From an uncultured Methanosarcinales archaeon (GTDB lineage Archaea; Nanobdellota; Nanobdellia; Woesearchaeales; CAYPCY01), in assembly GCA_964409385.1 (NCBI GenBank), contig CAYPCY010000002.1, positions 10,608-74,607 on the forward strand: DNA of 64,000 bases. The letters run 5' to 3'. The notes beneath the pieces are model-generated. The model saw nothing but the letters and a program-made list of their open reading frames with translations, searched no databases and had not been told where the DNA came from. This document shows, piece after piece, positions 11,625 to 37,994 of the stretch. Each line of letters opens with the position of its first letter. Position 1 is the stretch's first letter. The translations under genes were made by a program, and so were the position numbers.

Positions 11625-12929
11625 TTAGTTAAAATTGTTCAAAAAGAAACTTATTTTGTTAGCAACATTCTCGCCAGATTTTACTGCAGAATACATTCCG
11701 TAAGGAATCCTTGTGTCTAAATAAGTATAGTCTCCAGCAAGAAACACTCTATTTGAAGGTTTGTCATATCCACTTTTAAGATTTTCATAAATTTCTTCTG
11801 AAATTATAGTTCCTGCATACCACCATCTATGAATATCTTTAAATAGTATATTTTCATCCTCGATTTTTTCAAATAATTTTAGAATATTTAAATTAGTTAA
11901 GATTATTTCTTCATCAGTTTTATTTTGTACCTTTTTTGATTTTAAATCAGTAATATATGAAAGTATGACACTTTTATTATCTTCTGTGTGTTTAATTATT
12001 GTGGTTGTCATCAAATCAGGAGTTACTAAATAGGAAAAATTTTCAAAAGAATGGTTTTCTATTCCAACAGCAATAACAATCATTTGACCATATTTTACAG
12101 AATTCAAAAAATCCTCACTATTTTTATTAATTTTTTTTATTAATTTTTTTGCAATAGGCGCAGGGGTTGTCACAATAACTGTTCTAGAAAAAACTATTTG
12201 TGTTCTATTTTTGTTAAAATATTCGATTTTTACTTTTTCGCCAATATCATCTACAGAAGTAACTAATGAATTAAATTGAATTTTTGCATTAACTCTTCGT
12301 AAATACTCTGTTATTATTTCTTTATTTCCTTTCTTATAATAGTTAATATTGTATTTTTTGAGTGAATCTTGTTCTTGTCTTTCTATAATATAATTTTCAA
12401 TTTCACCAGGATGAATTGTTTGGAAAAACGAATTAAGAATATTTTTTGATTCTTCATTAAGCATTAAATCACTAAATGTTGAATTGTCATTTGCTAAATT
12501 AACTTTTTTAATACAATCAATAATAATATCACAAAAATAAGTGTTATTATTATAAAAAAGTCCGACAGACCCACTTTCTACCAATTGATTTGATGAATTT
12601 ATTTCAAAAGGAAGCATTTGAGGATTATAACTAAAAACAGCACCAAGATCATACGATAAGTTATTTTTTGTTATTGTTAAAACTCTTCCTCCCGCATAAT
12701 CTTCTTTTTCTAAAATTAGAACATTATAATTATTAAGATTGAATGCTGAAGAAAGTCCTGAAAGACCAGCACCAACTATGACAACATCATAATCATCAAC
12801 TTCTTGCATTTCAATAGATTTTGGAGATAATACTTCATTTATTAAAACAAATATTATTGTCAAAACTATAATTGCAAAAATAATATGGTTTTTTTTATTT
12901 TGTTTCTTTCCGATGTTTTTTCTAACCAT
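11625..12929 (-). CDS. Membrane-anchored FAD-dependent oxidoreductase (amine oxidase/protoporphyrinogen oxidase family)
   Basis: VVIVGAGLSGL..A dinucleotide fold, LEK...AGGRV, DLGA, C-terminal FLAGDY..GM..AV.SG; N-terminal TM. Confidence 0.85.
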   Translation of the reverse strand: MVRKNIGKKQNKKNHIIFAIIVLTIIFVLINEVLSPKSIEMQEVDDYDVVIVGAGLSGLSSAFNLNNYNVLILEKEDYAGGRVLTITKNNLSYDLGAVFSYNPQMLPFEINSSNQLVESGSVGLFYNNNTYFCDIIIDCIKKVNLANDNSTFSDLMLNEESKNILNSFFQTIHPGEIENYIIERQEQDSLKKYNINYYKKGNKEIITEYLRRVNAKIQFNSLVTSVDDIGEKVKIEYFNKNRTQIVFSRTVIVTTPAPIAKKLIKKINKNSEDFLNSVKYGQMIVIAVGIENHSFENFSYLVTPDLMTTTIIKHTEDNKSVILSYITDLKSKKVQNKTDEEIILTNLNILKLFEKIEDENILFKDIHRWWYAGTIISEEIYENLKSGYDKPSNRVFLAGDYTYLDTRIPYGMYSAVKSGENVANKISFFLNNFN

Positions 12930-12971
12930 AATATTTTATTCAAATATTTTAATAATTAATAAAGTTTTATT

Positions 12972-14537
12972 TTAAAAAAACAATATATAACTTATTAAAC
13001 CAATTATACTAATAATATTTAGTGATAAAACATTTTTTTCGTTGTAATTTTCTTTAGTAATAAAATAGAATTGCAAAATTCCTAAGAATAATAAAGGAAA
13101 CAATAGTATAAATGTTTGAAAATAAAAGAATAAAACTAAGTATGAAATAAGAAAGAAAAATCCTATTATTCTTTTTGAGTTTTTTAGTCCGAATAGTACT
13201 GGAAGTGTTTTTATTTTATTGGCTTTATCACCTAAATAGTCTTTTATATCTATAAAATTAGCTATGGCTGTTAGAAAAATTAAACAAAATATCGATATTT
13301 CTGACGGAAATCCAACTAGTGAATTATTATTAAAAATATAGAATCCTAACATTATAAGAATTAATGAATTGAAGGAAATTACTATTTTTGATAGAAATGT
13401 TACTCTTTTAAGTCTTAAAGGTTTCATAGAATAAAGAAAATAAGTTCCCATAAATGTTCCAATTATCAAAAAAGCAACAAAATTAACTAAAGCAGCGAAT
13501 AATAATGCAATAAGTAAAATATAAAAAGAATGTTTCTTATAAGTTTCTAAATTAACATTATTTTTAACTAATGGTCTGGTTTTGTTCGTAATCTTATCAA
13601 TTTCTAAATCTTCAATATTATTTGTCATTACAGAATATATCCATGCTAAAATAATTGATATTGGTAATATTATTAATGAGAAAATACTTGTTTGATTTAA
13701 AGTTAAAGTTCCTACTTTGTAAGCTAGTGATACTCCTAAAAAGAACATTAACGAATAATGTGCAGTCCTATAAGGTCTAATATCTTTTAAAATTGAGGTA
13801 TAAACTTTCTTGTTTGCTATTATGATTATGGAAAGTAAAGCAAATATGAATGTAAGAACAATGAAAAAATGAGAATGTAATATACTTAGAGTGTTTGGAT
13901 GTTGAATGTTAGTATACAAAGGAGTATTTATTATTTTTAAAAATAAAGATTCGATAATTGGTTTAATTGAGAAAATAAAAGTTATGGTATAAAGAAGAAA
14001 AGTTGAAAAAAAACTATCCACTATTTTTTTAGTTTTTATATAAATATAAAAAAATGTTCCTAAAAAGATCAAAAATAATTCTATTCTTAAACCTGGAGTT
14101 ATACCAATAGTTTTAAATTCTCCAAAAAAAGTAAGAAAACTATATAATATATTATAATTATCTGAAGGATTTAAATATCCTATCAATCCTTTGTATTTAG
14201 TAAAAAAATTTATCAAAGGAGCAACCAACACTACAATAAATAATGAAAAAATTACTCTTGAAGATTTTATAATATTTCCTTTCATTGTATAATTTGATAT
14301 TATTATAAAGATTAATGCTACTGAAATAAACCATAAAGTGAAGTGTATGATTTCTGAAAAATTTCCAGGACCGCTCCCTAGTAAAAATTCCAAAAATAAT
14401 CTAATTAAAATAATAAAAATAAAAGTAAGAATAAAATTAGAATATGGAATTTTTTCATTTTCTAAATAATAAAATTGTTTTTCAAGAATTTTTCTAATAT
14501 TTTTCGTTTTCAAATTAATAATAATTAGTTTATGCAC
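12972..14537 (-). CDS. UbiA-family prenyltransferase with extra N-terminal membrane domain
   Basis: NNIEDLEIDKITNKTRPL and DIKDYLGD....IKTLP Asp-rich motifs; many TM helices. Confidence 0.85.
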   Translation of the reverse strand: MHKLIIINLKTKNIRKILEKQFYYLENEKIPYSNFILTFIFIILIRLFLEFLLGSGPGNFSEIIHFTLWFISVALIFIIISNYTMKGNIIKSSRVIFSLFIVVLVAPLINFFTKYKGLIGYLNPSDNYNILYSFLTFFGEFKTIGITPGLRIELFLIFLGTFFYIYIKTKKIVDSFFSTFLLYTITFIFSIKPIIESLFLKIINTPLYTNIQHPNTLSILHSHFFIVLTFIFALLSIIIIANKKVYTSILKDIRPYRTAHYSLMFFLGVSLAYKVGTLTLNQTSIFSLIILPISIILAWIYSVMTNNIEDLEIDKITNKTRPLVKNNVNLETYKKHSFYILLIALLFAALVNFVAFLIIGTFMGTYFLYSMKPLRLKRVTFLSKIVISFNSLILIMLGFYIFNNNSLVGFPSEISIFCLIFLTAIANFIDIKDYLGDKANKIKTLPVLFGLKNSKRIIGFFFLISYLVLFFYFQTFILLFPLLFLGILQFYFITKENYNEKNVLSLNIISIIGLISYILFF

Positions 14538-14548
14538 ATTTTTAAATT

Positions 14549-14881
14549 TTATTCATTAATGTTTGGTTGATTTAATTCAGGAGGTGCACGAGAAATTAAT
14601 ACGATGTTTTCTTCAATTAGGTTTCCATCATAATCAAAAGAATCTAAACACTTTTTCTTCAAATATTCACTTGTTATTTTTTCACACAAATTCTTATTTT
14701 CAGTTAACATAGCGTTATTGTGATTTATGTAATTTTTCTCTATTATGTTTTCTGAATTTTTGTCTTCTTGAATAAAAAATTCTTTTGTATGTAAGGGATT
14801 ATGATGGAGTATTAATAGTATTATTAATAAGAAGACTGTTGTGAAAATAATTATTATTTTTCTATTTAATTTGTTTCCCAT
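14549..14881 (-). CDS. Hypothetical membrane-anchored protein with C..I......C motif
   Basis: N-terminal TM; NLCEKITSEYLKKKC; operonic spacing. Confidence 0.6.
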   Translation of the reverse strand: MGNKLNRKIIIIFTTVFLLIILLILHHNPLHTKEFFIQEDKNSENIIEKNYINHNNAMLTENKNLCEKITSEYLKKKCLDSFDYDGNLIEENIVLISRAPPELNQPNINE

Positions 14882-15413
14882 TCTTAATTCCTATTTTTTT
14901 CTTGATAAACTTTTTATTAGCTGAAATAAAATAAAATAAGCTTATACAAATAATTAAATTTAATATACCTCCTTGTAATATTAGATAGTTAGTTTCCATA
15001 AAATATTTATTATAATTGTTAAAATCATAAATAGACTCATAAATGAATGTATTAAAATAATATATTTTTTCACCCCAATTAGATAAAATGAATCCTCCTA
15101 CTTTTGCACTAAAAATAGTTATTAGGATGATAAAATATATACTTGTTTGAATAGCATATGCAAAACTAATTTTAAACATTGTTTTTAGAGATTTGAGACT
15201 TAATAATTTAAGTTTTAATAATTTTATTCCTAACATTGCAGGAATTAGTATTATTAAGATAATCTTCATAGGAATTAATATTGAGTGGACAAGAAAATCT
15301 GAAAACAATATTAAATTAAGAAAATTATGTAAAAACAACATAATTAAACCAATTAACAAACTAGGTTTCCAAGTTAGTTTTATTATTTCTTTAAAAGATA
15401 ATTGGTCTTTCAT
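14862..15413 (-). CDS. Hypothetical integral membrane protein (about 4 TM)
   Basis: Hydrophobic ORF co-oriented with and overlapping its neighbour. Confidence 0.6.
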   Translation of the reverse strand: MKDQLSFKEIIKLTWKPSLLIGLIMLFLHNFLNLILFSDFLVHSILIPMKIILIILIPAMLGIKLLKLKLLSLKSLKTMFKISFAYAIQTSIYFIILITIFSAKVGGFILSNWGEKIYYFNTFIYESIYDFNNYNKYFMETNYLILQGGILNLIICISLFYFISANKKFIKKKIGIKNGKQIK

Positions 15414-15459
15414 TGAATAATTTTATTTTTATATCTATTTAATTTTTTTGATTATTGAA

Positions 15460-17580
15460 TTAAGATATTTTCAGAATCCAAAGCAGAAAAATATACAATA
15501 TTGCAGCTATTATAAATGTGTTACTTATCCCTATTGACATTGAGATAATGTAAAAGATAAAAAATCCAATAACTGTTCCCAAACTATCTAATAAATACAT
15601 TTTGGGAAATTCTTCTTTTTTTATTTTAGTTAATCCTTTAGGAAAATAACTGCCTAGAAAGAAGAAAAGAGAGCCAATAGTGATAATGGAAAATAAAATT
15701 TTTATAGAAATATGCCAATAATGATTTATATTTAAGAAAGCAAAATAATATAGTGTGAATATTATGGGAAAATAATAGGGTTTATTGAATTTTTGAAATT
15801 TTAATGAACCTAATGATAAAAATAATAACATTAAGAAGGTGGTGATAATAAATGTTAATGTATAATCGATAAAGAATGATTTCAAATATGTTAATGTAAA
15901 TAATTCAATAAGTATAAAACTAGTTCCTAGAATGAAAAAGTAACTATTCATTAATTGTCTCTTTTTTTTAATTAGAATAATTGAAATTAGAAACAGAATT
16001 ACTGATAAAGATAATAATTTTGTGAAATTGTTTTCTAAATTGTAAAAGAATGGTTTATTATCAGATATTACTTCTTTATTTTTACTAAATATAAGGGTTT
16101 CTTTAATAATTATTTCAGAATTATTATCTGATATTCTTGCAAACTTTTCTAAATTTGTTGAATTTCTGCTTAGTATAAGAAGACTTCCTAGAAAATGTAT
16201 TGGTTCTATTGTTGAAATATTATAATAGCTATAACTTATTTTGTATTTCTTTTTTAATACTTCAAGATTTTTCCCAAGTTTATTAGTTAAAGGTTCATTA
16301 TTTCCATGACCAATAATAATAACTCCATTTTCATTTAATTTTTCGACCGCAATAGTAAGCCCTTCAATAGTGTAAAGGTAGTTTTCAATTTCGATCAAAG
16401 TTTTTGTTCTTTTTCCCACAGTAAAGTCAAGGCCCTCATAGATTATAACATCAAATTTTTCGTTTGTATTTTCTAAAAATTCTCTACCATCCATTGATTT
16501 TGTTTCTACTTTATTGTAAATATTATTGTTAAATAGAGAAAATTTTGTTTTCATCAAATTCACAACTAAAGAATCTATTTCTATGCAGGTTAGTTTGCTT
16601 TTATTAAATGAATATAGTGTTAAACATCCCATTCCCCCTCCAGAGCCAATTATAACTGTTCTTCCAGATAATTGAGAATATAAAATTTTTCTAAAGTCAA
16701 AATCTTGTTGATAAGAAGGACAGGTAATCCATTGTTGTCTGTAATTATAAGCACCACCAATACAATCTGCACTCCAAGAATAAATATCTATTTTAGAATA
16801 TGATGACCAACCAGAAAATAAATGTAATTTTTTATTATATTCTTCTAGTATTGTAAAATTTTCAAATTCGGTCAGGTTATAATTTGAGTCAGAATACCAC
16901 AAATATTTTTGAACATTTCTTTGTTTTTCAATTTCATAGTCTAAGTTTAAAGTTGAATAGATAAACAAAGTAGTAATTAGTAAAATTAAAGAAATTAGAA
17001 GAACCAATTTTCCCCCCCTCTTTGAATTTGTTGTTAGATAATTAATAGTTATTAATAGTATTAGTGAACTAAGAATTAGTAAACTGTTTGCTCCTAAGAA
17101 AACAACTAAAAACATTCCCAAGATTGCTCCTGAAAGAAATCCTGTAGTTTGAAAAAATACTATTGTTCCTTTATTTTTTTTGTTTTTTGTAAATGATTTT
17201 TGAAGATATATTCTACCAATAATTATACCAATTATCACCAAAGGTATTGACAAGATAATAAATAATATAATTGTGGACAAAAGGTTTATTTCAGGAAATC
17301 TGAATTTTAATATAAATATGTTAATAAGAAGTGTACTAATTAATAAGAAATATAAAAATGTTAAAGTTTTGATTTTTTGAAAAGATTTACTTAGAAAAGC
17401 GCCTAAACCTATAGAACCAATTGTTAGCGTTATAAGTATATTTATAATTATTGTTGGTGAATGAAATGCATTGTATGTTACAAATAATTGTTTTAAGAAA
17501 AATATTTGGAATATTGCAGAAAAACAAGAAATGATAAACATAAGAAATAAATGATCTTGTAATTTATTTTTTAACAGCAT
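15460..17580 (-). CDS. Membrane-embedded spermidine-synthase-like class I SAM-dependent transferase
   Basis: TM bundle - VIIGSGGG, IEIDSLVV, DGREFL, FDVII, YLYTIEG - TM bundle. Confidence 0.8.
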   Translation of the reverse strand: MLLKNKLQDHLFLMFIISCFSAIFQIFFLKQLFVTYNAFHSPTIIINILITLTIGSIGLGAFLSKSFQKIKTLTFLYFLLISTLLINIFILKFRFPEINLLSTIILFIILSIPLVIIGIIIGRIYLQKSFTKNKKNKGTIVFFQTTGFLSGAILGMFLVVFLGANSLLILSSLILLITINYLTTNSKRGGKLVLLISLILLITTLFIYSTLNLDYEIEKQRNVQKYLWYSDSNYNLTEFENFTILEEYNKKLHLFSGWSSYSKIDIYSWSADCIGGAYNYRQQWITCPSYQQDFDFRKILYSQLSGRTVIIGSGGGMGCLTLYSFNKSKLTCIEIDSLVVNLMKTKFSLFNNNIYNKVETKSMDGREFLENTNEKFDVIIYEGLDFTVGKRTKTLIEIENYLYTIEGLTIAVEKLNENGVIIIGHGNNEPLTNKLGKNLEVLKKKYKISYSYYNISTIEPIHFLGSLLILSRNSTNLEKFARISDNNSEIIIKETLIFSKNKEVISDNKPFFYNLENNFTKLLSLSVILFLISIILIKKKRQLMNSYFFILGTSFILIELFTLTYLKSFFIDYTLTFIITTFLMLLFLSLGSLKFQKFNKPYYFPIIFTLYYFAFLNINHYWHISIKILFSIITIGSLFFFLGSYFPKGLTKIKKEEFPKMYLLDSLGTVIGFFIFYIISMSIGISNTFIIAAILYIFLLWILKIS

Positions 17581-30703: not shown

Positions 30704-30793
30704 GGGCCGGTAGCTCAGCCTGGTAGAGCACTTGGCTTTTAACCAAAACAGAAGGCAACCAAGGTGTCGCGAGTTCGAATCTCGTCCGGCCCA
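30704..30793 (+). tRNA. tRNA-Lys(TTT) with canonical 37/38 intron (30742-30757)
   Basis: GGGCCGG/CCGGCCC acceptor, CTTGG/CCAAG anticodon stem, BHB central helix CTTT/AAGG. Confidence 0.92.
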
Positions 30794-30803
30794 TACAAAA
30801 AAA

Positions 30804-31043
30804 ATGGCAAAAGAAGAAAAATTGGAGCATGTTTTAGTACCCGAGCATAAAAAGCTCTCTAAAGAAGAAAAATCTAACCTTCTAGAAAAATATTCAATTG
30901 ATGAAACTAAATTACCAGTAATTAAAATTAAAGATCCCGCAATAGAACATTTAGAACTAGTTCCGAATGACGTTATCAAGATTGAAAGAACAAGCTTGAC
31001 TGCTGGAAGAATAGACTTTTTTAGGAGGGTTATTGATGAGTAA
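30804..31043 (+). CDS. rpoH: DNA-directed RNA polymerase subunit H (Rpo5)
   Basis: HVLVPEH..LS, LPVIK..DPA, DVIKIER.S.TAG, RRV. Confidence 0.97.
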   Translation: MAKEEKLEHVLVPEHKKLSKEEKSNLLEKYSIDETKLPVIKIKDPAIEHLELVPNDVIKIERTSLTAGRIDFFRRVIDE

Positions 31044-32511
31044 TATTCTTGTAGAAAATTATTTTAGAGAAAAATCATTGATATCTTCAAATATTGAATC
31101 ATTCAATAAGTTTATTGACAAGTACCTTCAAGAAATAATTAATGAAAATAAAGAAGTAGAACCAACAATAATTCCAGGAAACATTCAAGATTTTAAGATA
31201 AGACTTGACAAAATTTGGGTTTCAAAACCAGAAGTTACAGAAGCGGATGGTTCAAAAAGAGAAATTACACCTACTGAAGCAAGATTAAGAAAAATTTCTT
31301 ACGCAGCACCAATTTATTTAGAGGTTTCTTCACATGTTAATGGAGTTCAAAGAGAAGCTTTCAAAAGCCAAATTGGTAATTTACCAATAATGCTAAAATC
31401 TAAATATTGTCATTTACATGGACTTTCTAAAGAAGAACTAATTAGTAAGGGAGAAGATCCTGACGATCCAGGAGGATACTTCATTATTAATGGTACAGAA
31501 AGAGTTGTCGTTATAATTGAAGATCTTGCGAGCAATACTTTAATGGTTAGCGAAGATAAAGGCGTTTCTCCTTTTGTAGGAAAATTATTTTCAGAAAGAG
31601 GATCTTATAAAATTCCTCATACTTTCGAACAATTAAGAAAGGACGGCATTTTTTATCTAACATTAACAAGATTACAGAGAGTTCCCATAATTTTATTAAT
31701 TAAAGCTTTAGGAATTGTCAAGGATGAAGAGATTATGAAATTAATAAAATCACCTTATGATTCTGAAATGCTAATTAACTTGTATGAACAATCAACCATT
31801 AAGACTGAAGAGGAAGCTATTGATAAACTAGCTAAGAAGATTGGAATAACACAAGTTAGAGAGATTAGACTTGAAAGAACTAGAGATATTTTAGACAAAT
31901 TCTTACTTCCACATATTGGAACTACTAGCGAATTTAGAATGGCTAAGGCAAAGAATTTATGTAAATATTTAAGCAAGTTCATTCTTGTTTCAAAAGGAGA
32001 CTTACCAACTGATGATAAGGATCATTATAAAAATAAAAGGTTAAAAATGGCAGGAGATCTTCTTGCTGATTTGTTCAGGGTTAATATTAAAGTTTTAATT
32101 GGAGACATGCTTTATAATTTCCAAAGAATAGTAAAAAGAGGAAAATTTCCTTCAGTAAAAGTAGTTATTAGGAATAAATTATTAACTCAAAGAATTTATA
32201 GTATGTTAGCAACTGGTTCATGGGTTGGAGGTCGTAAAGGAGTTTCCCAAAGATTATCCAGACATAATTTCTTAGATACAATGTCGCACTTACAAAGGGT
32301 TGTTAGTCCTCTTATGAGCTCTCAAGAAAATTTTGAGGCTAGAGCTTTACACCCTACTCATTTAGGAAGACTTTGTCCTACTGAAACTACTGAAGGAACA
32401 AATATTGGTTTAAGAAAGAATCTTTCATTATTATCTAAAGTTTCTTCAGAGGTTGATGTTGAAGAATTAATAACTTCATTAAAAAATGTGGGTTTGGAGG
32501 AGGAAAAATGA
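31036..32511 (+). CDS. rpoB2: RNA polymerase subunit B'' (Rpo2N)
   Basis: EARLR..SY.AP, DPGGYFIINGTERV, DKDHY.NKRL, HLGRLCP.ET. Confidence 0.97.
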   Translation: MSNILVENYFREKSLISSNIESFNKFIDKYLQEIINENKEVEPTIIPGNIQDFKIRLDKIWVSKPEVTEADGSKREITPTEARLRKISYAAPIYLEVSSHVNGVQREAFKSQIGNLPIMLKSKYCHLHGLSKEELISKGEDPDDPGGYFIINGTERVVVIIEDLASNTLMVSEDKGVSPFVGKLFSERGSYKIPHTFEQLRKDGIFYLTLTRLQRVPIILLIKALGIVKDEEIMKLIKSPYDSEMLINLYEQSTIKTEEEAIDKLAKKIGITQVREIRLERTRDILDKFLLPHIGTTSEFRMAKAKNLCKYLSKFILVSKGDLPTDDKDHYKNKRLKMAGDLLADLFRVNIKVLIGDMLYNFQRIVKRGKFPSVKVVIRNKLLTQRIYSMLATGSWVGGRKGVSQRLSRHNFLDTMSHLQRVVSPLMSSQENFEARALHPTHLGRLCPTETTEGTNIGLRKNLSLLSKVSSEVDVEELITSLKNVGLEEEK

Positions 32512-34310
32512 CTGATGTGTTTTTGGACGGAAAATTTATTGGCACTGTAAAAAATGAAGAAGTATTTGTTGAAAAAATAATTTCTGAAAGAAGATCTGGA
32601 AAATTCCCTGAAAGTATTAGTGCAAGATTTGACGATTCTGTGAAATCTGTACTTCTAGAATCTTGCAGAGGAAGAACTCTAAGGCCTTTACTAGTTGTTA
32701 AGAATGGAAAAACATTACTTAATGAAAAGCATATTTCTAAATTAAAATCAAGGGATTTAAAATGGACTGATCTAATAAAACAAGGAGTTATTGAATATTT
32801 AGATGCTAATGAGGAAGAATCAGCATTCATAGCTTTTTTCGAAGATGAATTAACTAAAGAAAATACTCATCTGGAAGTTTCTGCATTAGGAATGGTTGGA
32901 TTATGCACTTCTCTAGTTCCTTTTGGAAACTACAGTCCAGGTACTAGACTTATTCAAGGTTCTAAAAATCAAAAACAAGCATTAGGATTCTACGCTGCAA
33001 ATTATTTACAAAGAATGGACATGGACATTAGTTTATTACATACTCCTCAAATTCCACTAGCCCAATCATTAATGCACGAAGTTTCTGATTATAACAAGCA
33101 TCCATCAGGACAAAATATTGTTTTGGCAGTTATGAGTTATGAAGGATATAACATGGAAGACGCTATTGTAATAAATAAGGGGTCTATAGAGAGGGGTCTT
33201 GGAAGAAGTACTTACTTCAGACCAGTTTCTGCAGAAGAACTTAGATATTCGGGTGGTCTTATTGATGAAGTTTGTATTCCTGACAAGGATGTAAAAGGTT
33301 ACTTATCAGAAGTTGACTATAGATATTTAGAGGATGATGGAATAATCTATCCAGAAGCAAAAGTGTCTGAAGGAAATGTAATAATTGGAAAAACTAGTCC
33401 TCCAAGATTCTTAAGTTCTCTAGATGAATATAATCTTGCAACAAGCAGCAGAAGAGAATCTTCACTAGCATTAAAACATGGAGAGAAAGGAACTATTGAT
33501 TTTGTTTTATTAACAGAGAATGAAGAAGGAAATAAACTAGTTCAAGTAAGAGTTAGAGAACAGAGAGTCCCAGAAATAGGAGATAAATTTACATCAAGAC
33601 ATGGTCAAAAAGGAGTTGTTGGATTAGTTCTTCCTGAGGAAGATGTTCCATTCACTGCTTCAGGAGTAACTCCTGATATAATTTTCAGTCCTCACGGTAT
33701 GCCTAGTAGGATGACAGTTTCTCACTTTATAGAATTAATAGCTGGAAAAGTAGCAGCATTATCAGGAAGATATGTTGACGGTACTATGTTTTATTCAGAA
33801 AAAGAAAATGATTTAAGAAAAGAACTTGAAAGTTTTGGTTTTACTGAAAATGGAACAGAAACACTATATAATGGAATAACTGGAGAAAGGTATAAAGCAA
33901 AAATATTCATTGGAAACATGTATTATATGAAATTAAAACATATGGTTGCTAATAAAGTTCATTCAAGAGCAAGGGGACCTATACAATTACTAACAAGACA
34001 ACCTACTGAAGGAAGGGCTAAAGAAGGAGGTCTTAGACTTGGAGAGATGGAAAAGGACACTTTCGTAGCTCATGGAGCTTCATTACTATTGAAAGAAAGG
34101 TTTGATTCTGATAAAACAATAGTTCCAGTTTGTGAAAGTTGTGGAGCAATGGCAGTTTTTGATGAGTATAAAAGTAGAACCTTCTGTCCATTATGTGGGG
34201 AGGATTCTAAAGTTGGAAATACTGAAATGAGCTTTGCTTTCAAGCTAATGCTTGATGAGTTCAAAAGTTTAGGAATATTCCCTAAATTAAATTTGAAGAG
34301 TAAATACTAA
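32508..34310 (+). CDS. rpoB1: RNA polymerase subunit B' (Rpo2C)
   Basis: GYNMEDA, GDKFTSRHGQKG, LKHMV..K.H.R, GGLRLGEME, Zn ribbon. Confidence 0.97.
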   Translation: MTDVFLDGKFIGTVKNEEVFVEKIISERRSGKFPESISARFDDSVKSVLLESCRGRTLRPLLVVKNGKTLLNEKHISKLKSRDLKWTDLIKQGVIEYLDANEEESAFIAFFEDELTKENTHLEVSALGMVGLCTSLVPFGNYSPGTRLIQGSKNQKQALGFYAANYLQRMDMDISLLHTPQIPLAQSLMHEVSDYNKHPSGQNIVLAVMSYEGYNMEDAIVINKGSIERGLGRSTYFRPVSAEELRYSGGLIDEVCIPDKDVKGYLSEVDYRYLEDDGIIYPEAKVSEGNVIIGKTSPPRFLSSLDEYNLATSSRRESSLALKHGEKGTIDFVLLTENEEGNKLVQVRVREQRVPEIGDKFTSRHGQKGVVGLVLPEEDVPFTASGVTPDIIFSPHGMPSRMTVSHFIELIAGKVAALSGRYVDGTMFYSEKENDLRKELESFGFTENGTETLYNGITGERYKAKIFIGNMYYMKLKHMVANKVHSRARGPIQLLTRQPTEGRAKEGGLRLGEMEKDTFVAHGASLLLKERFDSDKTIVPVCESCGAMAVFDEYKSRTFCPLCGEDSKVGNTEMSFAFKLMLDEFKSLGIFPKLNLKSKY

Positions 34311-34311
34311 A

Positions 34312-36870
34312 ATGGAAAACGTACCAAACGAGATTAATAATATAACTTTTAGCCTGTTCGGTCCTAAAACGATTAAGAACATGGCTGCGGCCAAGGTAGT
34401 AACACCAGAACTTTATGATAGGGAAGGATATCCTGTTGATGGCGGTTTAATGGATATTAGATTAGGAGTTATCGATCCTGGAATTAGATGTAAAACTTGC
34501 GGTTCTAAATTAAAAGAATGCCTTGGACATTTTGGTTATATTGAATTAGCAAGACCAGTAGTTCATGTTAAATTTGTTCCAACCATATTAAGTATTTTAA
34601 GAAGTACTTGTAACGAGTGTTCTAAACTTCTTGTTTCTGATGAAGAATTAGAAGATGCAAAGAAATTATTAAAAAATACTATTCCAAAGTTAGTATTAAA
34701 ATCTTTAAAACTTGGCAAGAGTTGTCCTCATTGTAAGTCTGAACAAGGAAAAATAATGCTTGAAAAACCAACCACTTTTTTAGAAGTTGATAAGAGAATT
34801 TCACCTATTGAGGTTAGGTCAAGACTTGAGAAGGTTCCTGATGATGCATTGCCTGTTTTTGGTATTAATCCAGAAGCTGCAAGGCCTGAATGGCCAATCT
34901 TGACTGTATTAGCAATTCCACCAGTTACTATGAGACCTTCCATAACTTTAGAGTCTGGAGAAAGAAGTGAGGATGATTTAACACATAAACTAGCAGATAT
35001 TGTAAGGATTAATCAAAGACTTTTCGAGAATATTAACGCTGGAGCTCCAGAAATCATCATTGAAGATTTATGGGATTTATTACAGTATCACATCACAACA
35101 TTTTTTGATAATAATCTTTCTCAATTACCACCTGCTCGTCACAGAAGTGGAGAGCCACTAAAAACATTAACAGAAAGAATAACTAGTAAAGAAGGAAGAA
35201 TAAGACATAATTTAGCAGGTAAAAGAACTAATTTTTCTGCAAGAACAGTTATTAGTCCAGATCCTAAAATTGAAATGGATGAAGTTGGAGTTCCTATAGT
35301 TATGGCTTTAAAACTTACAGTTCCTGAAAGGATTACTGAATGGAATTTGAATTATCTGAAAAAGTTTGTTGAGAACGGTCCTAAAGTATATCCAGGCGCT
35401 AATTATATTGTTAGGCCTGATGGTAAAAAGAAAAAAATAACTGATGATACTAAAGAACAATTATTAGAAGAGATAGAACCAGGATTCCAGGTTGAAAGGC
35501 ATTTAATAGATGGTGATGTAGCATTATTTAACAGACAACCTTCACTACATAGAATGTCTATGATGTGTCACAAGGTTAAGGTACTTCCAGGCCTAACATT
35601 AAGACTAAATCCTGCTGTTTGTGCCCCTTACGCTGCAGACTTTGACGGGGATGAAATGAATTTGCACATTCCTCAAACAGAAGAAGCAAGGGCTGAAGCA
35701 GAAATATTACTAGAAGTAGAAACTCAAGTTATTAGTCCAAGGTACGGATTAAGTATAATTGGTTGTAATCAAGACTCAGTTTCAGGAAATTATGTTCTTA
35801 CTAAATATTTAGATTTTCCTAGGAGTGAAGCCATAGACTTACTTGCTTCAATAGGAGTTACTGATTTTTCAAAACTTCCAAAGAAAGAAATTGTTTCTGG
35901 AAAAGAAGTTTTTTCAGTATTACTTCCTAAAGATTTCAATTTTGAAGGTCACGCAAAATCTTACAAGCCAGGATCTAAAAATTCTGACGATTTTGTTAAG
36001 ATAGAAAAAGGAGTATTAAAAACAGGAGTATTAGACAGTAAAAATATTGGTGGTGGTTCTGGACTTTTACTGAGAAATTTACACAAACAATACGGTCAAG
36101 AAAGAGCACTAAAAATGCTAGGATTATTTTTCAGGCTTGGAATTCAAACTTTATTGAAGTACGGGTTTTCATCTTCATTATCCGATACTGACTTAACTTC
36201 TAAAGCTTCCAAAGAGGTTGAAAATATAATTTTAGAATCTGAAAAGGAAGTTAATAAATTAATTAAGAAGTATAATCAAAAAACTTTAGTTTCTCTTCCA
36301 GGAAGAGGATTAAGAGAAACTTTAGAACTAAAAATTCTTGAAGTTCTTAATAGAGCAAGAAACGATGCTGGAAAAGTAGTTTTCGATACTGCTGATGTAA
36401 TGAGTCATACTTACATAATGGTTGATTCGGGAGCTAGAGGTAATGAAATCCAACTAGCTCAAATGGCTGCTTGTGTAGGACAACAAGCGTTCAGAGGGTC
36501 TAGAATTAACCAAGGATTTGGAGGTAGAACATTATCTTGTTTCAAAAAGAATGATTTAAGTCCTAAAGCACATGGTTTTGTTAGGGGGGGTTATAAGTCA
36601 GGATTAAAACCTCACGAGTTCTTTTTTATGAATATGACTGGTAGGGATTCATTAATGGATACTGCATTAAGAACTCCAAAATCAGGTTATCTCTACAGAA
36701 GATTAGCTAATGCCATGCAGGATTTAAAAGTAGAATATGATTTTACTGTTAGAGATGCAGCTAATAAGATTGTTCAATTCACGTATGGAGAGGACGGTAT
36801 TGATGTTTCAAAAAGTGAAGGAGGCAGTATTAACATTAAAAAAATAGTTGATACTGTTATTAAGGGTTGA
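34312..36870 (+). CDS. rpoA1: RNA polymerase subunit A' (Rpo1N)
   Basis: GHFGYIELA.PV, NRQPSLH, ADFDGDEMN, SGYL.RRL. Confidence 0.97.
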   Translation: MENVPNEINNITFSLFGPKTIKNMAAAKVVTPELYDREGYPVDGGLMDIRLGVIDPGIRCKTCGSKLKECLGHFGYIELARPVVHVKFVPTILSILRSTCNECSKLLVSDEELEDAKKLLKNTIPKLVLKSLKLGKSCPHCKSEQGKIMLEKPTTFLEVDKRISPIEVRSRLEKVPDDALPVFGINPEAARPEWPILTVLAIPPVTMRPSITLESGERSEDDLTHKLADIVRINQRLFENINAGAPEIIIEDLWDLLQYHITTFFDNNLSQLPPARHRSGEPLKTLTERITSKEGRIRHNLAGKRTNFSARTVISPDPKIEMDEVGVPIVMALKLTVPERITEWNLNYLKKFVENGPKVYPGANYIVRPDGKKKKITDDTKEQLLEEIEPGFQVERHLIDGDVALFNRQPSLHRMSMMCHKVKVLPGLTLRLNPAVCAPYAADFDGDEMNLHIPQTEEARAEAEILLEVETQVISPRYGLSIIGCNQDSVSGNYVLTKYLDFPRSEAIDLLASIGVTDFSKLPKKEIVSGKEVFSVLLPKDFNFEGHAKSYKPGSKNSDDFVKIEKGVLKTGVLDSKNIGGGSGLLLRNLHKQYGQERALKMLGLFFRLGIQTLLKYGFSSSLSDTDLTSKASKEVENIILESEKEVNKLIKKYNQKTLVSLPGRGLRETLELKILEVLNRARNDAGKVVFDTADVMSHTYIMVDSGARGNEIQLAQMAACVGQQAFRGSRINQGFGGRTLSCFKKNDLSPKAHGFVRGGYKSGLKPHEFFFMNMTGRDSLMDTALRTPKSGYLYRRLANAMQDLKVEYDFTVRDAANKIVQFTYGEDGIDVSKSEGGSINIKKIVDTVIKG

Positions 36871-36875
36871 TATTA

Positions 36876-37994
36876 ATGAAAGCATTCGATGAGTATAAAG
36901 GAAAATTACCTGTTTCTTTAATTGAAGAGGTTAAAGAAGAATTACCTGAAGGTATTAATGAAGCAAAAGTTAAGAAAATATTGGAAGAAGTCTATTCAGA
37001 ATACATTAAGAGTTTAGTGAATCCTGGTGAATCTGTAGGAATAATTTCTGCAGAATCAATTGGAGAACCTAGTACTCAAATGACATTAAACACTAAATTA
37101 TTAGCAGGGGTTTCCGAAATGAATGTTACTCTTGGAATTCCCAGAATTATTGAAATTTTAGACGGAAGAAAAATAATAAAAACTCCTATGATGGAAATAG
37201 GACTTAATAAGAAATTTTTGGATAAGGAAGTTAAAAAATTCGCAATGAAAATAAAAGATACTTCTTTGAAAGAGTTTGTTGTTAAGGTTTCTACAGATAT
37301 TACTAATAGTTCACTAAAGCTTGATTTGAATAAAGATCTTCTTTCAGAGTATGATTTAACTCCTGAAGAAATTAAAGTTTTAGTGGCTAAGAAGCATGAT
37401 GTTAAATTAACAGGCAATTCTTTAACAATTAAAGTTAAGGATGCTTCAATAGGTGATTTACATGAGGTTAAAGGTATAGTTTTAGATTTACATGCTATTG
37501 GAATAAAAGGAGTAACACAAGTATTACCTGTTAAAAAAGACACAAAACATGTTATAATGACTTCTGGTTCAAACCTTAAAGAAGTATTAAAACTTGATTT
37601 TGTCGATCCAAAAACCACTAAAAGTAATGATCTTTATGAAACAGAAAAATTCTTTGGTATAGAAGCAGTTAGACAATTAATAATAGACGAAGTTCTAAAG
37701 GTTTTCGAAAATCAAGGATTAGATATTAATGCAAGACACATATTGTTAATCGCTGATATGATGTGTTATTCTGGAAAGATTCAAGGAATAACAAGATATG
37801 GGATCGTTTCTGAAAAGAAATCAGTTCTTGCCAGGGCTTCTTTCGAAACACCTGTAAAGTACTTAATAGCAGCTGCATTAGATGGTGAAGTTGATGAGTT
37901 GGCTAGTGTTGTTGAGAATGTTATGATTAACCAACCAATTCCTGTAGGAACTGGTCTTCCAGGACTTGTAACAAAGTTTAAAAATAAAAAGTAA
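36876..37994 (+). CDS. rpoA2: RNA polymerase subunit A'' (Rpo1C)
   Basis: PGESVG..SA.SIGEP.TQMTL, GIEA.R, RHI.L.AD.M, LARASFE, GTG. Confidence 0.97.
   Translation: MKAFDEYKGKLPVSLIEEVKEELPEGINEAKVKKILEEVYSEYIKSLVNPGESVGIISAESIGEPSTQMTLNTKLLAGVSEMNVTLGIPRIIEILDGRKIIKTPMMEIGLNKKFLDKEVKKFAMKIKDTSLKEFVVKVSTDITNSSLKLDLNKDLLSEYDLTPEEIKVLVAKKHDVKLTGNSLTIKVKDASIGDLHEVKGIVLDLHAIGIKGVTQVLPVKKDTKHVIMTSGSNLKEVLKLDFVDPKTTKSNDLYETEKFFGIEAVRQLIIDEVLKVFENQGLDINARHILLIADMMCYSGKIQGITRYGIVSEKKSVLARASFETPVKYLIAAALDGEVDELASVVENVMINQPIPVGTGLPGLVTKFKNKK

Follow-up and report, generated by a model that had tools for sequence, protein, structure and literature searches.

The window, that is, the whole stretch of 64,000 nt analysed here, covers positions 10,608-74,607 of the forward strand of contig CAYPCY010000002.1 (assembly GCA_964409385.1) from an archaeon of the order Woesearchaeales (DPANN). 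The source genome (G000) is that of a marine Woesearchaeales archaeon; it is small (798 kb) and is rated 100% complete with a contamination of 0.01. As shown in Table 1, the window contains an RNA polymerase (RNAP) operon with the gene order rpoH-B''-B'-A'-A''. The operon is intact, and rpoA'' directly follows rpoA'. The translation of the rpoA'' ORF includes SIGEPSTQMTLNTKLLAGVSEMNVTLGIPRIIEIL, and its frame is intact. Because the identical protein in the database (P0003, with a precomputed PF04998 assignment) has 372 aa, the true start of rpoA'' is probably the ATG at 36876 (372 aa) and not the TTG at 36867 (375 aa). Residues of Rpo1C are numbered from the TTG in this study: K77-L78-L79 corresponds to K74-L75-L76 when numbered from the ATG. 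The segment around residue 453 of rpoB'' was mapped onto yeast Rpb2 (query residues 3-41 to Rpb2 512-550).

Table 1. Genes and active-site features of the RNAP operon in the window
Feature	Position	Strand	Basis or remark
rpoH (Rpo5)	30732..31043	+	First gene of the RNAP operon; name assigned by operon position; blastp matches at the same position in 38 related loci
rpoB'' (N-terminal part of Rpo2), 492 aa	31033..32511	+	ORF list, column comparison
rpoB'' residue 453, Thr	32389-32391	+	Pro in 37/37 controls; precedes the equivalent of yeast Rpb2 E529
rpoB' (C-terminal part of Rpo2), 600 aa	32508..34310	+	ORF list, column comparison
rpoA' (Rpo1N), 852 aa, single copy	34312..36870	+	NCBIfam profiles; one match in its own genome
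Rpo1N residue 228, Ala	34993..34995	+	Gly in 39/39 controls; Ser in the second KLL lineage
Metal-binding loop AADFDGD (canonical NADFDGD)	35632..35652	+	Matched string TACGCTGCAGAC
Ala441 (GCT) for Asn	35632-35634	+	Equivalent of yeast Rpb1 N479 and P. furiosus A' N456
rpoA'' (Rpo1C), single copy	36867..37994	+	375-aa ORF from TTG; homology to solved Rpo1C
N-terminal trigger-loop helix TQMTLNTKLLAGV	37074..37112	+	Translation, alignment to solved chains
Codons AAA-TTA-TTA, K-L-L for F-H-F	37095..37103	+	Yeast Rpb1 F1084-H1085-F1086; P. furiosus A'' H87 is the His

In the trigger loop of Rpo1C the sequence is TQMTLNT-KLL-AGV; its K-L-L stands where F-H-F/Y is found in relatives and in solved archaeal enzymes. 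In a phmmer comparison with solved structures, Rpo1C residues 13-370 aligned to residues 17-385 of 36ro_C (E 1.6e-79), and 4qiw_C was matched with 2.5e-78. K-L-L falls exactly under the F-H-Y/F-H-F of the solved Rpo1C chains, and the flanks are identical. The first-pass annotation had read KLL in place of FH(F/Y) in an intact frame, and both the codons and this alignment bear the reading out. The trigger-loop His (yeast H1085, P. furiosus A'' H87) is replaced by Leu. The trigger-loop residues that contact the NTP, Gln, Leu and Asn (yeast Q1078, L1081 and N1082), are kept in TQMTLNT, and the T, A and G are canonical too. Rpo1C scored 366.3 bits against TIGR02389, which is below the equivalog cut-off of 420.65. 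Among seven relatives, the four that keep the His scored 405.4-442.5 bits (two of them under 420.65), the KLL proteins similar to those of a second genus (g14) scored 386.5-389.2 bits, and P0191, which has KLF, scored 420.6 bits. In A'', the identity to canonical Woesearchaeales RNAPs is 50-57%, and the Rpo1C branch is long (1.17 against a median of 0.4). As judged by its sequence, Rpo1C is a divergent orthologue and not a separate family. The long branch and the NCBIfam score below the cut-off would also fit a relaxed constraint.

A second change is found in Rpo1N. This subunit scored 1180.5 bits against NF006336 (cut-off, 819) and 1148.7 bits against TIGR02390 (cut-off, 1042.55). The three metal-binding Asp residues are all kept in its AADFDGD loop. 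However, the Asn of NADFDGD, a 2'-OH contact, is absent (Ala441). The 2'-OH of the NTP is contacted by R446, N479 and Q1078 (PMC3243610). The Arg of NRQPSLH in Rpo1N is intact, and TFS is present in the genome.

The KLL and Asn-to-Ala changes are real and fixed, and are conserved within the lineage. Four proteins that are 87-90% identical (P0004-P0007, from jgi and lgn assemblies) all carry KLL. Logan contigs without differences from four other runs (X3-X6) span the KLL codons, and those from X3 and X4 also span the Ala441 codon. The same codons thus occur in independent assemblies and runs, and the assembly error that the first-pass annotation had named as a possible refutation was not seen in these contigs. 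Only one match to rpoA'' was obtained at E <= 10 in the whole G000 genome, and neither a second rpoA'' nor a second rpoA' was found in this 100%-complete genome. Thus, the canonical second copy that the first-pass annotation had considered does not appear, and the gene in the window is the sole rpoA''.

The two changes occur together. In 54 loci of the same order, the trigger-loop triplet was FHF in 49, FHL in one, KHF in two and KLL in two, one of which is the window. When GTDB species genomes were scanned with Q-M-T-L-[N/D]-T-[K/R]-[L/F]-[L/F]-x-G, one archaeal genome beyond that of the window was found, together with two chance bacterial matches. The Asn of NADFDGD was kept in 49 of the 51 loci that cover the motif, and the two exceptions are the two KLL loci: the second KLL genus, also in Woesearchaeales, has Gly for the Asn. 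The third KLL genome (L056 = G202) has GADFDGD. Y-[A/G]-ADFDGDEM was present in 3 of the 401 genomes counted for the order (G000, G013 and G202), and these are exactly the KLL genomes. Loss of the Asn accompanies KLL in 3/3 genomes, and [A/G]ADFDGD is found in 0/398 others. The phylum scan required the frame T-Q-M-T-[L/F]-[N/D]-T and was therefore blind to TLRT; about 275 of its 401 genomes belong to the same order. Four unpublished genomes, G182 (= L015), G131, G111 and G120, enter the tallies only as canonical or non-matching controls (G111 in the phylum scan), and no claim depends on them.

At the protein level, Lys precedes Leu in 13/13 sequences with Leu at the His position, Leu occurs without Lys in none, and Lys is found together with the His (KHF) in five; because the second protein search was deliberately biased to KLL words, these counts are not frequencies. 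The lineage of the window has KLL in five sequences (87-100% identity). In the other KLL lineage (about 74-80% identity), six of seven sequences have KLL and one (P0142) has KLM. A third lineage is represented by P0191, which reads KLF-SGV. FYF was seen in P0178. One metagenome scan for the P0191 contig did not return it, and the best match was 62% identical. The 80 loci returned by that scan were all canonical (FHF in 79, FHY in one), and the Asn was present in 56/56 loci that cover the motif.

We compared 758 near-invariant columns in B'', B', A' and A''. The RNAP of the window differs at 20 of them. Four columns deviate in both KLL lineages (A' 228, A' 441, A'' 77 and A'' 78), where an overlap of 0.84 is expected by chance (hypergeometric P = 0.008). 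Three of the four are active-site positions, and the fourth, A' 228, lies away from the NTP site and is changed conservatively. This residue was considered as switch 2 and rejected: it maps at approximately residue 281 of human RPB1 or residue 246 of 8cro_A. Two further candidates were also rejected. Residue 238 of B' (Arg to Tyr in the g14 pair) is not the NTP-contacting Rpb2 R766 since it maps to Rpb2 857, and the equivalent of Rpb2 Y769 varies too much within the order to be informative. In the KLL RNAPs, 2.6-3.6% of the near-invariant columns deviate, whereas three equally divergent RNAPs (L079, L092 and L101; 3.0-3.8%) keep the His and Asn. Because of this, and because the Gln, Leu and Asn of the loop, the NRQPSLH Arg and TFS are retained, the sequences argue that KLL and loss of the Asn do not come from general decay of the RNAP.

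KLL arose at least twice, with the same pair of changes appearing independently in the second genus. In the database taxonomy, G000 belongs to family f1, and G013 and G202 belong to family f14; another genus of f14 (G142 and G201) has FHL and NADFDGD. In an RNAP tree from which the trait columns had been removed, G000 groups with G094, G056, G083, G059 and G167 (support 100), and G013 and G202 group with G142 (support 100). The RNAP markers and aIF5B plus SecY agree in placing G000 near G056 and G094. In the AU test with RNAP, aIF5B and SecY joined, a single KLL clade was rejected (p = 0.00072; log-likelihood difference, 152.8); the rejection comes only from these joined data, since one KLL clade was not rejected with aIF5B and SecY (p = 0.194) and the result with RNAP was borderline (p = 0.0587). 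The trees and the joined test thus reject one origin. Therefore, KLL does not mark one clade, a point that the first-pass annotation had proposed to check. The clade of the window is sister to two KHF sequences (support 88). EF-2 was rejected as a species marker: two divergent types exist in the order, and a tree with EF-2 split G013 and G202 and needed three changes. These two genomes of the same genus have different nearest EF-2 relatives, yet they are mutual best matches for aIF5B (70%) and SecY (75%). EF-2 was left out of the joined markers after its conflicting tree had been seen.

[quoted passage not shown] Substitutions of E. coli beta' H936 reportedly underlie the "positional catalyst" model (work of Mishanina in 2017 and Palo in 2021, as relayed by citing papers). 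PMC3737540, PMC11343019 and PMC12391331 call the His of cellular multisubunit RNAPs invariant or universally conserved, and the "positional catalyst" proposal is described in the last of these. In yeast, H1085L is "viable and healthy", and H1085A, N, D and F are lethal (PMC5127505). The health of the H1085L mutant argues that the His is dispensable as a general acid (PMC5127505, PMC12391331). The tolerance is context-dependent, because the epistasis of H1085L is unusual and many further substitutions are synthetic-lethal with it (PMC12391331). The same text places F1084, Q1078 and Rpb2 Y769 close together in the closed loop and reports that lethal F1084R is rescued by Q1078S (PMC12391331). In P. 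furiosus, H87A abolishes promoter-dependent transcription, lowers kpol approximately 10-fold and lowers 2'-dNTP discrimination approximately 7-fold, and the effect of N456 is moderate (PMC3737540). Thus, another archaeal enzyme suffers severely when the His is lost, although the residue introduced there is Ala and not Leu. Mutation of N479 weakens NTP/dNTP discrimination, and dNTP incorporation is higher in plant Pol IV and Pol V, where this position is substituted (PMC5737373). We found no published description of the KLL variant, and hence none of it as common, which the first-pass annotation had named as a refutation; the alignment of 542 archaeal loops in the supplement of PMC12391331 was outside the search.

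We consider it probable that the operon encodes a working, convergently evolved alternative arrangement of the NTP site in the sole RNAP of this archaeon. Activity of the enzyme is inferred from its status as sole RNAP and from the conservation of the variant. With the trigger loop closed, Leu would take over the steric, positioning function of the His; this step is modelled on the healthy yeast H1085L and the "positional catalyst" model. Lys, one residue earlier, may restore a positive or polar contact near the ribose and phosphates of the NTP, in the pocket lined by the Gln and, before its loss, by the Asn. That Lys stands in for the charge of the His, as the first-pass annotation proposed and as the co-occurrence of Lys and Leu and the proximities of residues in yeast indirectly suggest, is likewise inferred. 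Because some relatives have KHF and Leu is always accompanied by Lys, Lys seems to have appeared first, followed by Leu. Removal of the Asn side chain might give room for, or re-balance, the new arrangement. The predicted enzyme is active, probably slower, and altered in NTP/dNTP discrimination and fidelity; the kept ribose contacts of Gln and Arg, together with TFS, would carry selectivity and proofreading. We propose more tentatively, as a possibility that we rate somewhat under even, that this is a second viable design of the NTP site, reached at least twice and probably three times, in which Lys would serve as the charged contact, Leu would give the steric push and the Asn would be dispensed with, in the order Lys and then Leu with loss of the Asn.

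Mildly harmful changes of the His and Asn could instead have been fixed by drift in the small populations of a reduced symbiont under relaxed selection, so that the polymerase is simply poorer, and Lys and loss of the Asn compensate nothing. The genome of 798 kb, the long branch of Rpo1C, its TIGR02389 score (366 bits against 405-442 in the four His-keeping relatives) and the position of the KLL RNAPs in the upper range of conserved-column deviation would all agree with this explanation. However, drift does not readily account for the same K-L-L and loss of the Asn in two lineages, for which a single origin is rejected by the joined data, or for two sites that co-occur in 3/3 genomes and 0/398 others. 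Moreover, KLL is conserved in one lineage at 87-100% identity and in six of seven sequences in the other, RNAPs of equal divergence retain the His and Asn, and the change from F to K takes three base changes, yet it recurs. We therefore regard drift as unlikely.

Selection by an inhibitor, a small molecule or protein that grips the trigger-loop His and the Asn, with Lys patching the catalytic cost of resistance, is clearly improbable. Convergent change of two NTP-site residues would be expected from such a molecule, and tagetitoxin also contacts the Asn, which would favour it. No archaeal RNAP inhibitor is known from these habitats, however, the window holds no pointer to one, and the same pressure would be needed in two lineages from apparently different samples. 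The trigger loop is a target of streptolydigin, tagetitoxin and alpha-amanitin (PMC3737540), and PMC12391331 gives H1085 as the target of alpha-amanitin. It is still less probable that altered substrate selectivity was itself the selected trait, with relaxed discrimination against dNTPs or other nucleotides suiting a nucleotide scavenger. The weaker discrimination on mutation of N479 and in Pol IV and Pol V (PMC5737373) and in P. furiosus H87A and, moderately, N456 (PMC3737540) is consistent with this idea, but the Gln and Arg that read the 2'-OH are retained, and dNMPs in RNA would bring no evident benefit. Finally, no point was found in favour of an artefact of assembly or sequencing, of a pseudogene or of a contaminating contig as the source of KLL, and this is practically negligible: the frame of 375 codons is whole and lies inside a whole operon, contigs from four further runs give exactly this sequence, the variant is kept in four diverged relatives, and the RNAP and aIF5B plus SecY placements are consistent.

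If the arrangement described above works as we suppose, the Leu that yeast unexpectedly tolerates occurs naturally in a presumably functional sole RNAP, which would give independent evolutionary support to the positional model. The strict coupling of the Leu with both Asn loss and a preceding Lys, repeated in separate lineages, points to a particular path of epistasis that connects two functional active sites. If a second design is true, nature would already have separated the "general acid" from the "positional catalyst", and the enzyme may differ in speed, sugar selectivity or resistance to inhibitors. The variant shows that "universally conserved" catalytic residues are replaceable in deep-branching uncultured archaea. 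Because Rpo1C falls under its NCBIfam cut-off, the variant is also relevant to homology-based annotation and marker-gene models. A laboratory precedent for the change from His to Leu, yeast H1085L, is already known; new here are the accompanying loss of the NADFDGD Asn and at least two origins of KLL.

Yeast Pol II Rpb1 H1085L resembles the enzyme of the window in having Leu at the trigger-loop His position. However, it is a single laboratory change in a eukaryotic enzyme, whereas the Leu in the window is natural and fixed in the sole cellular RNAP, always stands with Lys at the F1084 position, and is accompanied by loss of the Asn in all three genomes that could be checked. [quoted passage not shown] These specialised paralogues are non-essential, have diverged at more than 140 invariant positions and carry trigger-loop deletions, and in Pol IV the loop makes no contact with the NTP. 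In contrast, the enzyme of the window is the sole RNAP, its genome has no second rpoA' or rpoA'', and the rest of its loop is canonical rather than degenerate, with 20 of 758 near-invariant columns changed. The A'' H87A and A' N456 mutants of P. furiosus affect both of these positions in an enzyme that is likewise archaeal and indicate the expected cost of their loss (PMC3737540); unlike H87A, the natural variant must support life, and it has Leu instead of Ala plus the Lys. The canonical RNAPs of Woesearchaeales (G056, G094 and G142) have the same operon with split B''/B' and A'/A'', but in them FHF, FHL or KHF occurs together with NADFDGD.

The first-pass annotation claimed that the trigger-loop His of Rpo1C is replaced in this genome, which carries Lys-Leu-Leu (KLL) instead. 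When the protein is aligned to Rpo1C chains of solved archaeal structures, K-L-L takes the place of F-H-Y or F-H-F, and the surrounding string (GEPSTQMTLNT...AGV.E.NVTLG.PRIIEI) is otherwise identical. This alignment, together with the codons, confirms the replacement. We numbered the Rpo1C residues from a possible TTG start: residues 77, 78 and 79 correspond to F1084, H1085 and F1086 of yeast Rpb1. Because the database copies of Rpo1C have 372 aa and begin at an ATG three codons downstream, this ATG is probably the real start of rpoA''.

Features of the window and the four near-invariant columns that deviate in both KLL lineages
Feature	Coordinates	Strand	Remarks
Low-G+C stretch	12001-16000		G+C 0.219, versus 0.26-0.35 elsewhere in the window
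Archaeal RNA polymerase operon	30732-37994	+	ORFs in the order rpoH, rpoB'', rpoB', rpoA', rpoA''
rpoB'' residue 453	32389-32391		ETPEG to ETTEG (Thr for Pro)
Rpo1N Ala441	35632-35634		GCT
Rpo1C/A'' (rpoA'')	36867-37994	+	ORF; end-to-end alignment to Rpo1C chains of solved archaeal structures (36ro_C, E 1.6e-79)
Possible TTG start of rpoA''	36867-36876		overlaps rpoA' stop codon
ATG of rpoA''	36876		probable real start
K-L-L codons	37095-37103		aaa-tta-tta
L30e-, NusA-, S12- and S7-like genes	3' of RNA polymerase operon		names read from translations
A' 441			Asn to Ala or Gly
A'' 77			Phe to Lys in both lineages
A'' 78			His to Leu in both lineages
A' 228			Gly to Ala or Ser

The same annotation had named an assembly error and a second rpoA'' gene as doubts, and neither was found. 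Two studies of marine or seawater metagenomes provide eight public DNA runs that contain the window stretch. Four of these runs, none marked as a possible source, were compared with the window using assembled contigs rather than raw reads. Contigs with zero differences spanned the KLL codons in all four runs and the Rpo1N Ala codon in two of the four. The sole other letters at 35632 and 35633 (G>A and C>A) came from one contig of another organism, which has the canonical AAT and 85% likeness. Four proteins from jgi and lgn assemblies (P0004-P0007; 87-90% identical to the window Rpo1C) in a collection of 5.8 billion proteins all possess KLL. The window's own genome (797,906 bases in 15 contigs) is rated 100% complete and 0.01 contaminated, and a six-frame search found exactly one copy each of rpoA'' and rpoA' in it. 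KLL is genuine, and this genome has no back-up copy of the gene.

A second residue described as invariant is lost in the same enzyme. The catalytic loop of Rpo1N is AADFDGD, as compared with the usual NADFDGD. Ala441 replaces an Asn that corresponds to N479 in yeast Rpb1 and to N456 in P. furiosus A'; yeast N479 touches the incoming NTP at its 2'-OH, as do R446 and Q1078 of the trigger loop (PMC3243610; PMC3737540). The trigger loops of 54 same-order loci were FHF (49), KHF (2), FHL (1) and KLL (2), the two KLL loci being the window and L050 from genome G013. The Asn was present in 49 of the 51 same-order loci that cover the metal-loop motif, and both exceptions were the KLL loci (Ala in the window, Gly in G013). 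In two loci (L028 and L031, from G141 and G018), the metal loop is NADYDGD, compared with NADFDGD.

We searched the species genomes of GTDB with the pattern Q-M-T-L-[N/D]-T-[K/R]-[L/F]-[L/F]-x-G. One additional archaeal genome, a Candidatus Woesearchaeota MAG (L056), matched. Over the stretches compared, L056 matches G202 exactly; G202 is the second species of g14, the genus to which G013 belongs. The metal loop of L056 is GADFDGD. Two Gammaproteobacteria matches were rejected as chance; one aligned weakly, over 16 residues only. Y-[A/G]-ADFDGDEM occurred in three of 401 genomes sampled from the order, namely the window's genome (G000), G013 and G202. The same three genomes were the only ones with T as the second codon base at the His position (frame TQMT[L/F][N/D]T) among 401 high-quality genomes of the phylum (about 275 from the same order, the rest from the same class), a pattern that is blind to TLRT loops. 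A protein search biased on purpose towards KLL words contributed further sequences, and in the 227 proteins compared the loops were FHF (183), FHL (25), KLL (11), KHF (5), KLM (1), KLF (1) and FYF (1); these numbers are not frequencies. Further g14-like members have KLL (P0124, P0125, P0130, P0131, P0138 and P0141) or KLM (P0142). The KLF protein, P0191, is a divergent Rpo1C with K-L-F-S-G-V (metagenome, jgi; longest contig 14,056). The FYF protein, P0178 (metagenome, jgi), is a single Woesearchaeales Rpo1C sequence with Tyr at the His position, and its nearest relatives have FHF.

Lys precedes Leu at the His position in 13 of 13 sequences, and Leu without Lys was not seen in the 227-protein set. 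Lys and His occur together in five sequences from several lineages, and the K-H-F genomes G002 and G035 retain the Asn of NADFDGD. The sister genus of g14 has F-H-L. Because K-H-F and F-H-L sequences exist, F-to-K and F-to-L each arise alone. We infer that H-to-L would arise only on a Lys background; it was accompanied by Asn loss in all three checkable genomes. K-H-F loops are spread over several lineages of the order (L019/L081 from G002, L054 from G035, P0029, P0036, P0148, P0195 and P0210), and the following Ala is often Ser or Gly. Phe to Lys recurs despite the three base changes needed.

KLL does not define one clade, a point that the annotation had left to be checked. In the database taxonomy, G000 is alone in family f1, and G013 and G202 form g14 in family f14; the other f14 genus (G142 and G201) has FHL or MFHL with NADFDGD. 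In a tree of four RNA polymerase subunits (43 rows, 2329 columns, five trait columns removed), G000 was placed with G094, G056, G083, G059 and G167, and the g14 pair with G142, both with support 100. These well-supported branches force two origins. The aIF5B and SecY tree gave the same picture with weaker support (94 for f14, 82 for G000 with G056). AU tests of all KLL as one clade gave p = 0.194 for aIF5B and SecY, 0.0587 for RNA polymerase and 0.00072 for the joined data (23 genomes, 3381 columns; log-likelihood difference 152.8). We conclude that KLL had two independent origins. In an Rpo1C-only FastTree (89 proteins, trigger-loop columns retained), the window clade was sister to two K-H-F sequences (support 88) and P0191 stood apart from both KLL groups; P0191 is likely a third origin of His-to-Leu. 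EF-2 was excluded from the marker trees because two divergent EF-2 types in the order (L121, L125, L132 and the other EF-2 loci, G000:C6, G013:C32 and G202:C1) scrambled the first tree. G013 and G202 differ in their nearest EF-2 relatives, although they are mutual best matches for aIF5B and SecY. This discord suggests paralogy, gene transfer or mis-binning, and EF-2 is unsafe as a marker in this order.

The subunits B'', B', A' and A'' of the KLL genomes were compared with those of another 40 operons of the order. Of 758 columns that vary little or not at all across 37-39 controls, 20 deviate in the window and 32 in the g14 pair. Only four deviate in both (see table), against 0.84 by chance (hypergeometric P = 0.008). 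The A' 228 change maps outside the NTP site and may well be a coincidence; the other three are residues around the NTP. Pro at rpoB'' 453 is replaced in the window only, being kept in 37 of 37 controls and the other KLL lineage; this residue directly precedes the counterpart of yeast Rpb2 E529, which is near the NTP alpha-phosphate (PMC11388330).

In the window, the sole cellular RNA polymerase has lost both the His, replaced by Leu, and the NADFDGD Asn. Both changes are fixed and conserved; they are strictly coupled, and they arose convergently. The trigger-loop Gln, Leu and Asn and the Arg of NRQPSLH are intact, G000, G013, G202, G142 and G056 each have one TFS copy. The enzyme is predicted to be active. 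The Leu may take over the steric role of the His, the neighboring Lys may compensate through a polar or charged contact within the Q1078/N479/ribose-phosphate pocket, and loss of the Asn side chain would accommodate this contact. The main competing explanation, drift in a genome that has been reduced, fits the long branch and low family score of Rpo1C. However, drift leaves unexplained the identical solution repeated in lineages and its absence from equally divergent relatives: KLL polymerases, which deviate at 2.6-3.6% of conserved columns, are not uniquely decayed, and controls at 3.0-3.8% retain His and Asn. Other possible causes are selection exerted by an inhibitor and selection for a change in sugar selectivity.

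In a limited literature search (supplements excluded), we found no description of a natural His-less cellular RNA polymerase or of this DPANN variant, a prior report being the annotation's remaining doubt. The trigger-loop His is described as invariant or universally conserved in PMC3737540, PMC11343019 and PMC12391331, the last of which aligned 542 archaeal trigger loops. The enzyme itself is known and the natural variant appears to be new. It hits a position regarded as among the most conserved catalytic sites of RNA polymerase and is directly testable. In P. furiosus, H87A abolished promoter-dependent transcription and lowered kpol about 10-fold, and N456 had a moderate effect on dNTP discrimination (PMC3737540). 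In yeast Rpb1, H1085A, N, D and F are lethal and K, R, W and Y very sick (PMC5127505); the Tyr of P0178 corresponds to the sick allele H1085Y. H1085L is "viable and healthy" (PMC5127505), from which the positional-catalyst proposal for this His follows (cited in PMC12391331 and PMC11343019), and has its own epistasis pattern (PMC12391331). In the closed loop, F1084, Q1078 and Rpb2 Y769 are near one another, and either Q1078S or Y769F suppresses the lethality of F1084R (PMC12391331). Yeast H1085L is a clear laboratory parallel to the His-to-Leu change in the window. In plant Pol IV, the His is replaced by Ser (PMC11343019), and the N479 position is substituted in Pol IV and Pol V (PMC5737373). 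[quoted passage not shown]
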